Assembly: GCA_963790025.1 (NCBI GenBank)
Contig: CAWBMP010000004.1
Location: forward strand, 160,001 to 224,000
DNA length: 64,000 bases
From: Nitrospirota bacterium
GTDB taxonomy: Bacteria > Nitrospirota > Thermodesulfovibrionia > Thermodesulfovibrionales > Dissulfurispiraceae
Reading direction: 5' to 3'
Shown here piece after piece: positions 45,198 through 50,362 of this stretch. The notes beneath the pieces are model-generated. The model ran no database searches and was not told where the DNA came from. It was given only the letters and a program-made list of their open reading frames with translations. Position numbers and translations under genes: made by a program. Positions within the stretch are counted from its first letter, which is position 1. Each line of letters opens with the position of its first letter.

Positions 45198-45230
45198 CCT
45201 TTATTCTACCAAATCCGGGATTTATTACAA

Positions 45231-45284
45231 AAATAGGGACAGCGACCATTTTTGATATTACAAAAAAGGTCGCTGTCCCTATTT
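45231..45284. terminator. 17-bp perfect inverted repeat; terminator for the 45337..45513 gene or a REP-like palindrome
   Basis: AAATAGGGACAGCGACC (45231-47) / GGTCGCTGTCCCTATTT (45268-84), with extra TTTTTG/CAAAAA pairing inside. Confidence 0.7.
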
Positions 45285-46010: not shown

Positions 46011-46340
46011 ATGGGGATGGAAGCAGGCGGCTGGATTGAAAAAAGAATTAATCCCAGGATACCTGCATCAGGTGAAGTATTGTTCAGGGCACATTGGATA
46101 TCCGACTTTTACGGAAGCAATCTCTCTTTAAGCACATACTTACATGCCGACCTGATAGACACGAGCATCGATGGTATGCGCATAAAGACATCTTTCCCCC
46201 TAAACAAAAAAGACGTGTTGGAACGCGTCTCGCAATATACCGATTCTCTTAGACAGACAGAACTGGTGAAATGGGTGGAAAAAATAGATGATTGCTATTG
46301 CGCAGGCCTCCAGTCTGTGCGTGAATTGAGCAAGCTGTGA
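46011..46340 (+). CDS. PilZ-domain protein; stop codon supplied by the MITE
   Basis: RINPR (RxxxR) and DTSIDG (DxSxxG); GGAGGT RBS. Confidence 0.75.
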   Translation: MGMEAGGWIEKRINPRIPASGEVLFRAHWISDFYGSNLSLSTYLHADLIDTSIDGMRIKTSFPLNKKDVLERVSQYTDSLRQTELVKWVEKIDDCYCAGLQSVRELSKL

Positions 46341-46498
46341 ATCGGCATCGAATATTGACCCGGCATCGGCGTCGAATTGTGACCCGCATATCGTAAATAT
46401 AACAGCCAGAATAACAAGCAGTTAATGGATATAGAAGCGGGTCAAGTTTGAATGCCGATATAGCTTAAAAGTGGGTCAAATGGCTGTGCCAATTCACA
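46336..46498. mobile_element. 163-bp IS21-type MITE, copy 1
   Basis: TG...CA termini; TGTGAATCGGCA-N7-TTGACCC ends, each with a second internal repeat; 160/163 identical to 48999-49161. Confidence 0.8.
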
Positions 46499-46753
46499 AA
46501 AAAGGCCATAAAGGCAGTAGAGGAAGTGACAGGCGTACTTTGGGATGAGATAAGCTCCCGAAGCAGGAGCAAGGAAGTAATATTTGCGCGAGGATTATTA
46601 GTTGGGGTATGGAGAGAGGCGGGGCATCGGATAGTGAACTTACAGCCCCAACTGAGGAGGGACTTATCAGTGCTTTCAAGATTGTCAAAAATCGCAGAGA
46701 GTGAAAGAGGACGAAAAGCCATGAAACAAATATTTCACATGCTAAATGCATGA
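46499..46753 (+). pseudogene. 5'-truncated helical fragment, probably the DnaA-C/TrpR-like HTH tail of a REP-associated (Y1) transposase
   Basis: KKAIKAVEEVTGVLWDEISSRSRSKEVIFARGLLV...RDLSVLSR; frame open right up to the MITE end; followed by GCCTGA|CCCC. Confidence 0.55.
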
Positions 46754-46797
46754 ACGCAAGCCTGAACATCCCGCTGGAATTTTCAATATATTTTTTC

Positions 46798-47997
46798 TTA
46801 TTTAGATAAGATGTACCCTCTGTTCTCCTTCAGCATCTTGAAAATAACACGGCAAAGATGACGACCAAGCGCACGTAGTGCCTGGTTATGTTTCTTGCCT
46901 TCAGCTCTTTTTTTCTCATAATATTGTTGAGACTGCGGAACTTGTTTTCGGTGCCGATCTACGGCAACCATCATTGCGGCCTTAGCCCGAGTATTAACCT
47001 GCGTTGGTGGTTTTGATCCTTTTTGCTTGCCTGAACTATTGTCAAGATTCGCCATCCCAATATACAGAGCCAGACTTGCTTCGCTGCCAAAGCGCTCGAT
47101 AGTTCCAATCTCTCCGGCGAGTTCAGATGTACAAATGGAACCGAATCCTGGAATGGTTGCGAGCGTTTGCGCAATATCCGAGCCGTGTGCAACACCCTCC
47201 ATCTTTGCTTCAAGTGATTTTATCTTGGCATGGAGTTCCATCACGCGGATTGCATCTTCCTGGATCATTTCACCGACCCACTCGACGTCGTGACTAAACT
47301 GTGCTGTTTTCTGCCATTCAACAATAACAGAGGCATATTTCTTACCAATGCCCGGGATCTTGCGGATAGTTGTTTCCCGCATGCGTGCAAGCGTGCGAAG
47401 GTCATCCGTGCTGGTCAGAAATCCAAGAAACCACATATTGTCGGCCTCACCGGTAATCTCCAGAAGTCCCGGACATACAGCGTGAAGATCGGCCTGTAGG
47501 TTGTTTACTACCCGTACTCGCTCATCGACCAAACGACGCCGGCGCCGTGATAGCCGCTTTAGAATGTCGTTGTCCCGCGGCGTTTTGCGTACCTCCTGCA
47601 GCACATCCTTGGCTATCGGCAGATGATCTCGAAGCTGAAAAAGCTCCAGTCCTTTCCTTGCGTCGATTGCATCGGTCTTCGCGGCACCGGGGAATATCTC
47701 CTTGAATCGAGCAAGCTTGAGATTGTTGATATTGAAGAGGCGATAATTGCGGGCTCGAACGAGCGTGTCCAGCGGACGTGCGTAGCCGTTGAAGCCCTCC
47801 ATTGCTACGGCAACGGGACAACTAAACCTTTGCTCCTGCTTCTCGATGCGACAGAAGAATTGCCGGAACCCTTCAGGTTCATGCACGATTGAGAATTCAT
47901 CGAGGACTTCACCGCTGGATAGGCCGATTGCAACGTTGTGACTGCGGCAGCCAATATCGACGCTTACACGCAGTTCGAGGGGATCATCTTTTTTCAT
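46798..47997 (-). CDS. IS110 family DEDD transposase / bridge recombinase
   Basis: VSVDIG, AMEG, KTDAIDA (DEDD); TIPGFG, EIGTIERF, NSSGK (catalytic Ser region), ALGRHL; AAGGAG RBS. Confidence 0.95.
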   Translation of the reverse strand: MKKDDPLELRVSVDIGCRSHNVAIGLSSGEVLDEFSIVHEPEGFRQFFCRIEKQEQRFSCPVAVAMEGFNGYARPLDTLVRARNYRLFNINNLKLARFKEIFPGAAKTDAIDARKGLELFQLRDHLPIAKDVLQEVRKTPRDNDILKRLSRRRRRLVDERVRVVNNLQADLHAVCPGLLEITGEADNMWFLGFLTSTDDLRTLARMRETTIRKIPGIGKKYASVIVEWQKTAQFSHDVEWVGEMIQEDAIRVMELHAKIKSLEAKMEGVAHGSDIAQTLATIPGFGSICTSELAGEIGTIERFGSEASLALYIGMANLDNSSGKQKGSKPPTQVNTRAKAAMMVAVDRHRKQVPQSQQYYEKKRAEGKKHNQALRALGRHLCRVIFKMLKENRGYILSK

Positions 47998-48021
47998 GTA
48001 GTCTCCTTTGCAGACAAGATT

Positions 48022-48213
48022 ATCATCCTCAGGTCTCGTCTACTTACAGAGCCACATTTGGCACCATCCCGGTCGACCCTTTTGAGGATGATGCAGATGA
48101 CGGAGGCGGCATTTCAGACTCAAGTGAGCCTGAATGAACAGGCCACTGACCCCACAAGCCACACCCCCGTTAAGCATATCTTACATGAATAAAGCTGCCA
48201 TAGTCATCTGCAT
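48022..48213 (-). ncRNA. Predicted IS110 bridge RNA (target-binding and donor-binding loops)
   Basis: Two internal-loop hairpins whose unpaired segments match the insertion site (UGGGGUCAG; AGUCUGA) and the end junction (CGGGAUG; GUAGA). Confidence 0.8.
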
Positions 48214-48315
48214 AAATCCTATGGTAGACCCCATTGTTTCCTTATTCTGAACTATTCGGAATTATAGCAGAATGCCATTTGAACAACTACAACAAGTAAT
48301 CTGAAATTATAGTCA

Positions 48316-48597
48316 CTACTTCGTTGCACCATGCAATTCTTCATCTACCTTCTCAGTCAGGAACATTTTCAGGAGCGATTGGTAAGGAACATCTCTCTTG
48401 TTCGCGAGCACCTTAAGATGCTCAATAAGCGATTCAGGCAGACGAATCGAGATTGTCTTAGTAGATGGCTTTAAGTTCGGAAAAGCGACCCGCTTTGCCT
48501 TTGTATAGTCAATGTACTCAGTAGAATCATGAGTCGCCCAAAAATTGACTTCTTCTGCTTCGCTTTTAAACTTCGGTATCTTCTTGAATTTGCTCAT
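48316..48597 (-). CDS. brnA: BrnA/CopG family antitoxin
   Basis: IPKFKSEAEE..FWATHD, TKTISIRLP, VPYQSLLK; overlaps the toxin gene. Confidence 0.88.
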   Translation of the reverse strand: MSKFKKIPKFKSEAEEVNFWATHDSTEYIDYTKAKRVAFPNLKPSTKTISIRLPESLIEHLKVLANKRDVPYQSLLKMFLTEKVDEELHGATK

Positions 48598-48889
48598 ATA
48601 CTCTTCTCTCCCTGCGGTTCATATCACGCGCCGAAATTATTCTTATCTTGGCTCCCCTCACTGTAAAAACAATGAAAAGTAATCTTCCGGTATCCGTTCT
48701 CCCTAAAACAAAGTATCGGTCTTCACCAATTGAATGTGACGCATCTTTCTTTACGATAATCGGATCGTTAAAGAATATCTCTTCGCATTCAACATGAGAG
48801 ACCCGATGTTTCTCCCAATTCTTCTTGATATTGCCCTCGTCCCATTCAAACCCTTCGAGTGAACCCAATATGTCGGACCAATCTTTCAT
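48566..48889 (-). CDS. brnT: BrnT family toxin
   Basis: GFEWDEGN..KNWEKH, EDRY..LG, IRIISARDM; ATG 48889. Confidence 0.92.
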   Translation of the reverse strand: MKDWSDILGSLEGFEWDEGNIKKNWEKHRVSHVECEEIFFNDPIIVKKDASHSIGEDRYFVLGRTDTGRLLFIVFTVRGAKIRIISARDMNRRERRVYEQIQEDTEV

Positions 48890-48998
48890 ATAGTATATTA
48901 TCAATATATACAAATAAGTTTTCCTTGTCAATTCTGTTACTCCTTATTTGCGACACCTGAAGATTTGAATCATAAAATATAGTCATGCAAACCCCGGC

Positions 48999-49161
48999 TG
49001 TGAATCGGCATCGAATATTGACCCGGCATCGGCGTCGAATTGTGACCCGCATATCGTAAATATAACAGCCAGAATAACAAGCAGTTAATGGATATAGAAG
49101 CGGGTCAACTTTGAATGCCGGTATAGCTTAAAAGTGGGTCAAATGGCTGTGCCGATTCACA
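48999..49161. mobile_element. 163-bp IS21-type MITE, copy 2 (same orientation as copy 1)
   Basis: Perfect 12-bp terminal IR TGTGAATCGGCA/TGCCGATTCACA; three substitutions versus copy 1. Confidence 0.8.
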
Positions 49162-49299
49162 ATCGGCCACTGTGATCAAACAATTTCTAATCGTAATCTA
49201 CTTTACAACTGTCTATCAATGGAAGCTTACGATATGGTATCTAAGTTAATCCAGGAATGAATCTGAACTGACGCAATAATAATCGTGTATAATAATTTC

Positions 49300-50290: not shown

Positions 50291-50362
<72 letters not shown>

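Follow-up and report, generated by a model that had tools for sequence, protein, structure and literature searches.

Bridge recombinases of IS110 elements are under development as tools for large DNA rearrangements, and those of the IS621 type that have been tested prefer cores ending in T. According to the accessible text of PMC11208160, 85.7% of IS110-group elements were predicted to carry a bridge RNA, and the guide track of the Durrant design code runs from a 9-nt left target guide (LTG), through a right target guide (RTG) with core and handshake bases and an 8-nt left donor guide (LDG), to a split right donor guide (RDG; rr..rrr), again with core and handshake bases; the code warns against non-NT cores. 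In IS621, as described in the accessible text of PMC11208158, the second core T is almost invariant and is read by the backbone of Gly63, and the handshake bases pair with positions 6-7 of the non-cognate DNA. A 2026 preprint reports, in the portion available, 32,190 bridge RNAs modelled with 86 models (10.64898/2026.10.21.760802). The available part of a 72-orthologue screen in human cells describes any signal in 18 of 72 and a measurable one in a single orthologue; given this low success, usefulness cannot be assumed.

In the 64,000-nucleotide stretch analysed here (the window), an initial annotation had proposed that the non-coding end of an IS110 element carries a bridge RNA with guides for both target and donor DNA. 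The insertion sites of the element's own copies, the empty sites, guide/target and guide/donor covariation, the stems, a junction promoter and the catalytic residues all agree with this proposal, and the locus very probably encodes a two-loop bispecific bridge RNA of an IS110-group element, one from a distant clade with recombination centred on TC.

The element, its recombinase and its core

46764-48228, minus strand: IS110-group element with TC at both ends, 1463 bp with one core counted
46798-47997, minus strand: 399-residue recombinase with D14, E67, D109 and D112 (RuvC-like) and S322 (Tnp)
48001-48008, minus strand: putative ribosome-binding site AAGGAG, recognized by its sequence

The element has the layout of the IS110 group, with 231 nt upstream of the ATG (a long left end) and approximately 35 nt downstream of the stop codon; its predicted bridge RNA lies in the left end, and not in a long right end as in the IS1111 group. 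The recombinase contains both IS110 Pfam domains, PF01548 (DEDD_Tnp_IS110) and PF02371 (Transposase_20), and passes the NCBIfam model NF033542 with 164.6 bits (cut-off 140). A single-sequence phmmer search of the PDB gave no matches; a profile of 41 relatives matched IS621 (E 6e-28) and ISCro4 (E 1e-26), and the AlphaFold model (pLDDT 91.5) matched the IS621 and ISCro4 structures at TM 0.61-0.66 with 14-16% identity. Among relatives the five residues D14, E67, D109, D112 and S322 vary little or not at all. In the profile alignment Asn70 occupies the place of IS621 Gly63, which may be related to the TC core.

Six near-identical copies of the element, with common ends and at most three differing positions, are present in the genome, and six matches to the bridge RNA correspond to these six copies, leaving no orphan bridge RNA or MITE derivative in the genome. 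The recombinase ORF is intact in four copies, the other two having in common a frameshifting 1-bp deletion. This deletion is identical in both (G000 C4:1511278-1512740 and C5:250343-251805), which suggests that a broken element was copied in trans. When 68 genomes of the family were searched at the DNA level, one of the 67 others had a full-length copy, and the best full-length matches in a plasmid collection reached only 25-28%. The nearest named relatives (87-91% amino-acid identity) are from Nitrospirota and Thermodesulfovibrionales genome bins, and the remaining ones are from many phyla, nearly all uncultured.

Two sets of relatives were compared by the same tests. Set 1 comprised 71 loci from GTDB genomes, 57 of them parsed, with fragments and 27-34% matches left out, and set 2 the best 80 of 319 metagenome loci; a few set-1 insertions recur in set 2, and the sets are therefore not fully independent. 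The parser mis-called one end each in L010 (right), L096 (left) and L157 (left), and in L143 and L150 a longer bulge shifts the RDG parse.

The core letters TC are found at 48228-48227 and 46765-46764. There is no target duplication beyond this short core, TC being single in the empty repeats and occurring once per element end. Among the 57 set-1 loci examined, TC forms the core in 48 of the 50 left ends; for right ends the figure is 41 of 42. The corresponding counts in set 2 are 67 of 70 and 64 of 66, two of the left-end exceptions being parser errors. Present at both ends, single in empty sites and nearly constant in two sets of relatives, the TC core read initially from the window stands.

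The predicted bridge RNA and its guides

48022-48213, minus strand: predicted bridge RNA, from the fold and the covariation of 38 pairs in 45 sequences, both ends being predictions
48091-48101, minus strand: 3' arm of the 5' closing stem (5' arm 48213-48203), from the fold, ensembles and covariation
48148-48156, minus strand: LTG, 7 nt plus core, positions 3-9 effective
48114-48120, minus strand: RTG, core plus 5 nt, from covariation with flanks
48112-48113, minus strand: putative target-loop handshake bases AA, the first A facing donor position 7 (T) in 31/37; invariant

No Rfam family was found within the element. Folding of the 192-nt minus strand, as proposed in the initial annotation, yielded a stable two-loop structure (-78.2 kcal/mol, z = -4.35; 0 of 200 shuffles equally stable) that has the guide layout of IS621, with one target loop and one donor loop, and the segments named at the outset were located at the coordinates assigned to them. 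The alignment of 45 left ends shows pairing in 96.4% of cells and double changes in 21 of 38 pairs, compared with 10.9 in shuffles and 4-10 in slid registers (alignment A1 excludes four near-duplicate rows). The 11-bp closing stem first described (48203-48213/48091-48101) is favoured in the window copy (p 0.98 in the ensemble), but only its outer 5 bp are well kept and covary across the family; up to 11 of 45 sequences have a disrupted inner part, and in these a longer base of the target stem takes the bases concerned.

Burial of the guides in stems had been named beforehand as evidence against the proposal. In the naked-RNA ensemble much of the LTG and RTG do pair with each other, because both contain the shared core, and the LDG is partly paired; the loops are therefore not predicted to be open without the protein. 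On the other hand, the donor closing stem is favoured in 38 of 45 single-sequence ensembles, and an RNAalifold consensus that buried the LDG was rejected on these grounds. A subclade comprising L005-L007, L009, L017, L021, L027 and kin has a longer hairpin within the donor loop, with unchanged donor arms, and a right end that is longer by 80-120 nt.

Taken singly, each guide match is weak and could be due to chance: when the RNA was dinucleotide-shuffled 20,000 times, a match at least as good was obtained in 5.2% of cases for the LTG, 17.8% for the RTG, 3.1% for the LDG and 10.8% for the RDG. All four matches jointly arose in none of the 20,000.

The covariation of guides with insertion sites that the proposal calls for is seen in both sets of relatives, and in the target loop it is strong for the RTG and modest for the LTG. 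The RTG, placed from the outset at 48120-48114, pairs 7/7 at all six own sites, five of them with one G:U. Among 37 set-1 loci, 141 of 185 pairs between the RTG and its own flank (positions 10-14) are Watson-Crick, compared with 102.9 ± 5.0 after permutation (0/100,000). When the six own copies are added, positions 11-14 each covary, slid registers give 18-52 versus 166/215 in register, and reduction to a single row per guide type (17 types) leaves a p of about 0.0005; on the set-1 tree the RTG letters change 5-11 times per position. Set 2 gives 213/300 versus 178.7 ± 6.2 (0/100,000 permutations), and with one row per type (13 types) its signal is weak (median p 0.04, worst 0.74). Extension of the pairing to target positions 15-16 revealed no covariation in either set.

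These data bear on the possibility that the protein, or a DNA structure at the terminal repeats (TIRs), picks the site, the RNA only regulating expression and its matches being by-products. Target positions 15-16 are indeed conserved (T at 15 in 36/43) without a guide partner, and ISPpu10 uses a target stem-loop besides pairing, according to the available text of 10.64898/2026.03.19.712850. However, the RTG letters change together with DNA outside the element at four positions and several times on the tree, and slid registers fail, which makes this explanation highly improbable.

The LTG is nearly invariant and therefore cannot covary much: set 1 gives 263/371 matches versus 240.9 permuted and set 2 gives 290/462 versus 275.4 (101/100,000), with covariation at positions 4 and 6. 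Positions 1 and 2 match poorly (12/53 and 21/53), and positions 5 and 7 match in 52/53. Its match to the site, as first proposed, holds for positions 3-9, but its limits have moved from 48154-48146 to 48156-48148, where the guide ends with the core and the AG beyond belongs to the loop and stem. The insertions of L011, L016, L020 and L029 fit their own guides poorly. Six of 53 sites (L010, L025, L043, L047, L049 and L058) have T at target position 6 opposite a G guide, and L053, L132, L138 and L139 carry the matching U; the guides may be lagging behind a shift in the target repeat at this position.

The donor loop and the element ends that it would read comprise the following segments.

48063-48070, minus strand: LDG, with a mismatch at position 7
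48039-48048, minus strand: RDG, UG (48048-47), a 3-nt bulge and GUAGA (48043-39)
48037-48038, minus strand: putative donor-loop handshake bases CG, the C facing target position 7 (G) in 46/47; invariant
46766-46772, minus strand: left donor arm GGGATGT, from sequence and right-end comparison
46781-46786, minus strand: predicted junction promoter -35 box TTGAAA, 17 nt from the -10 box once the ends are joined
48221-48226, minus strand: predicted junction promoter -10 box TACCAT, also the right donor arm, ending 8 nt before 48213

The LDG, originally given as 48071-48063 with 8/9 matches, retains its match to the donor, with the span corrected to 48070-48063 and a mismatch at position 7; in IS621 donor position 7 likewise tolerates a mismatch, according to the accessible text of PMC11208160. 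It matches the element ends and barely varies. The GUAGA first taken to be the whole right donor guide (48043-48039) does pair with the donor, and its first base, the one RDG position that covaries with the element end, follows donor position 12 in 55/55 set-1 loci (49 G-C and 6 A-T; three changes on the tree) and, in set 2, in 61 G-C and 6 A-T combinations with 3 others (n=70). The guide also includes the UG across the 3-nt bulge, which is invariant (55/55) and faces donor positions 13-14, while the three bulge bases vary. In both loops, the base following the right guide is able to pair at position 7 with the other DNA but not with its own; position 6 shows no such fit. These bases are invariant and are thus consistent with handshake pairing, not proof of it.

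Position 7 also bears on the register of the core. Were the core mis-registered, for example as G-T or C-T in another frame, TC would be an artefact of duplicated letters, and the G-U of the LDG where the donor has T-T, one base to the left of TC, would suit such a shift. Against it, GA, complementary to TC, closes both the RTG and the RDG, neither of which continues beyond it, and the LTG ends in UC; moreover, the donor has T and the target G at position 7, which therefore cannot be shared core. A shifted core is exceedingly improbable.

The insertion site of L103 (L103:100-125, 1555-1590) matches the donor, and not the target, at 13 of 14 bases. The idea that it represents a circle junction was rejected in favour of a chromosomal donor-like site, similar to the donor-like insertions of IS621, which are reported along with half-match insertions in the available text of 10.64898/2026.08.31.748434. 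A 98-bp direct repeat also flanks L103 on either side.

In a seekRNA-type system guiding would be confined to the target loop, and the second hairpin would serve as scaffold or regulate the transposase from the 5'-UTR; the matches of this hairpin to the element ends would then come from RNA-RNA pairing in read-through transcripts. Precedents come from the available text of PMC11187229, in which ISEc21 works with a 58-nt RNA, and of PMC8450116, in which the ISPpu9 5'-UTR regulates translation. Here, however, the first bases of the element are core and -10 box, which would be absent from a junction-promoter transcript; the LDG finds its match 1.3 kb away, at the right end, and in register with the RDG; the rival fold appears in 2 of 45 single-sequence ensembles, most of which favour the donor closing stem; and both the handshake bases and the L103 insertion fit a donor loop. 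We consider a target-only RNA to be quite unlikely, and the bispecific bridge RNA is retained below.

Target repeats, putative promoters and a proposed cycle

46499-46750, plus strand: 3' fragment (residues 233-316) of a Y1_Tnp + DnaA_C-type transposase gene, the end targeted by the element
48229-48235, minus strand: left target arm, outer flank of the TIRtron terminal repeat
46742-46763, minus strand: right target arm, which continues as the terminal repeat of the Y1-transposase element

All six own copies are inserted at GGG-TC-AG(G/A)CTT, in keeping with the target motif near TGGGG-TC-AGACT that had been anticipated. Empty sites with a single TC belong to one repeat family of 19 members, four occupied and 15 empty. 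The repeats are the inverted ends of an element of approximately 1 kb, the Y1_Tnp protein of which has a weak DnaA_C match, and thereby resemble TIRtrons (TIRYT; TnpA(Y1) subclass 2.1), for which the available text of PMC3733652 and PMC6006769 describes a Y1_Tnp and a DnaA_C-like domain and inverted ends with GGGGWSAS; IS110 insertion into these repeats is not mentioned in that text. A Y1 gene or fragment lies within 1.3 kb of four of the six copies, compared with about 1% of random sites (scored over -770/+900). Among the relatives, 18 of 32 rebuilt sites in set 1 and 24 of 54 in set 2 fit GGGGWSAS, and the short flanks contain a Y1 gene at 7 of 57 and 11 of 80 loci, respectively. Judged from these matches, TIRtron ends are a common, not an exclusive, target of the clade.

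The flanks of the window copy are mixed, the left (48229-48245) being of the upstream-TIR type and the right (46742-46763) of the downstream-TIR type, a combination absent from all empty sites found; it could have arisen by inversion between TIRs, by recombination between IS copies or by an assembly switch. Two 98%-identical elements of approximately 164 bp with inverted ends, which we take to be IS21-like, lie at 46337-46499 and 48999-49162 and are the only two in the genome. They bracket the IS110 element, the truncated Y1 transposase gene and a toxin-antitoxin pair in a 2.8-kb unit that resembles a composite transposon; the pair consists of BrnT-family toxin and CopG-family antitoxin genes (48316-48931, minus strand) just outside the left end. 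Further away are a tRNA gene (50291-50362, minus strand) and a hairpin (45227-45284), probably a terminator, whose Rfam match falls below the threshold.

By sequence, the joined ends build a predicted sigma-70 promoter (TTGAAA, 17 nt, TACCAT). TTG is found at the exact -35 distance in 40 of 42 right ends called, and TA(C/T)(C/T)AT is present at the left end throughout the family, the motif itself having been used to find this end. No end-to-end junction was found in the assembly or in the contigs of four sequencing runs, contigs being prone to drop rare forms. The sequencing runs listed for the stretch include no RNA run; neither this nor the missing joint in the contigs counts as evidence.

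A second promoter inside the left end, suggested by sequence motifs, is possible rather than probable.

48178-48207, minus strand: possible internal promoter (ATGACT, 18 nt, TAAGAT), with a predicted start near 48171

Within an otherwise variable 5' region, all 45 left ends have a TA placed 19-21 nt ahead of the target-loop motif (11.9 in shuffles, maximum 25), and 22 of them have TAnnnT (3.6 in shuffles, maximum 11); the interval was chosen after looking at set 1, and set 2 gave 73/73 and 33/73, respectively. The commonest letters 17 nt upstream of this TA are T-T-G-(A/C)-C-A, and the -35-like letters overlap the 5' stem. A promoter scan did not call the internal promoter. RNA from it would start at the base of the target stem.

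By analogy with IS621, from which we infer the transcript, the circle, the chemistry and the handshake function, the element would leave as a circle, the joined ends of which would form the sigma-70 promoter and drive an RNA of approximately 190 nt from about 48213. This RNA would bind the recombinase, its target loop pairing with both strands of a chromosomal T-G-G-G-G-[TC]-A-G-R-Y-Y and its donor loop likewise with the two strands at the circle junction. Cutting and exchange of the top strands at TC would follow, with the position-7 handshake bases favouring the forward reaction, and the integrated element would be flanked by TC without further duplication. The programmed target would mostly be the GGGGWSAS terminal repeat of TIRtrons, a safe and repeated landing site.

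A more elaborate reading, which we regard as doubtful, is that of a whole clade which has shifted to an N-C core disfavoured by enzymes of the IS621 type, parasitizes TIRtron ends under the direction of its RNA, and carries two promoters, the junction promoter producing the long RNA from the circle and the internal one producing a two-loop RNA of approximately 150 nt, as well as mRNA, from the integrated copy. The short RNA, lacking the 5' arm, would let the target stem extend. If true, the two promoters would answer how bridge RNA arises before the circle, and the clade would offer a programmable recombinase for TC sites. For comparison, the available texts describe weak read-through from the linear form of IS621 (PMC13626964) and a promoter inside the left end of ISPpu9 (PMC8450116).

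Comparison with known systems

Five RNA and end motifs of the clade gave only unrelated matches in the searchable part of the Durrant 2024 supplements. Supplementary Table 1 of that study contains the 30%-identity cluster 111c4e57a8d4a3f780, whose domain sequences are similar to those of the clade, with 25 of the first 34 residues identical by eye; in the study the cluster is only a tree tip, with an empty ISfinder column. In the accessible IS110 and bridge-RNA literature (including 10.1101/2025.10.25.684509 and 10.64898/2026.08.14.744561) no paper on the clade or on TIRtron targeting was found, figures listing cores of other elements excepted; the clade may be present in the supplements of the 86-model preprint or of the 72-orthologue screen.

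With approximately 15% identity, a fixed TC core, a long right guide and more than 100 natural guide/target pairs, the clade provides a test of core reading and is a candidate whose target range differs. Its insertions extend the list of repeats used by IS110 elements to TIRtron ends and include a natural donor-like one.

IS110-family elements that land in repeats or other elements, as here, include the REP-targeting ISPpu9 and ISPpu10, as well as ISEc21 and IS4321/IS5075, which go into other mobile elements, as far as the accessible descriptions go. ISPpu9 also shares a non-CT core, its repeat being AG (PMC8450116, available text), whereas ISPpu10 has a CT core, and the target here, the TIR of a Y1 element, differs from those of all five.

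The closest described systems are IS621 and ISCro4/IS622, which, in the accessible text of PMC11208160, PMC11208158 and 10.1101/2025.05.14.653916, have the same fold with a RuvC-like DEDD and a Tnp serine, an RNA in the left end, an LTG of 9 nt, an RTG of 7 nt, an LDG of 8 nt that tolerates a mismatch at position 7, and a split RDG; the predicted junction promoter, the putative handshake bases and the insertion into a repeated extragenic element are further likenesses. The order of the IS621 design track is also preserved, except for a 3-nt instead of a 2-nt RDG bulge. In contrast to IS621 and ISCro4, the recombinase has 399 rather than about 326 residues and shares only 14-16% identity with them; its core is TC, not the CT (N-T) of IS621, and this core and the low protein similarity place it outside the IS621/ISCro4 clade; the RTG is naturally 7 bp long; and the 5' arm closes around the target loop instead of forming only a separate hairpin. 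Since bridge RNAs are predicted in most IS110 elements and a look-alike protein appears in the Durrant 2024 table, the system is a variant of the known bridge-RNA system; the distant clade to which it belongs is set apart by its TC core, its scaffold and its target class.
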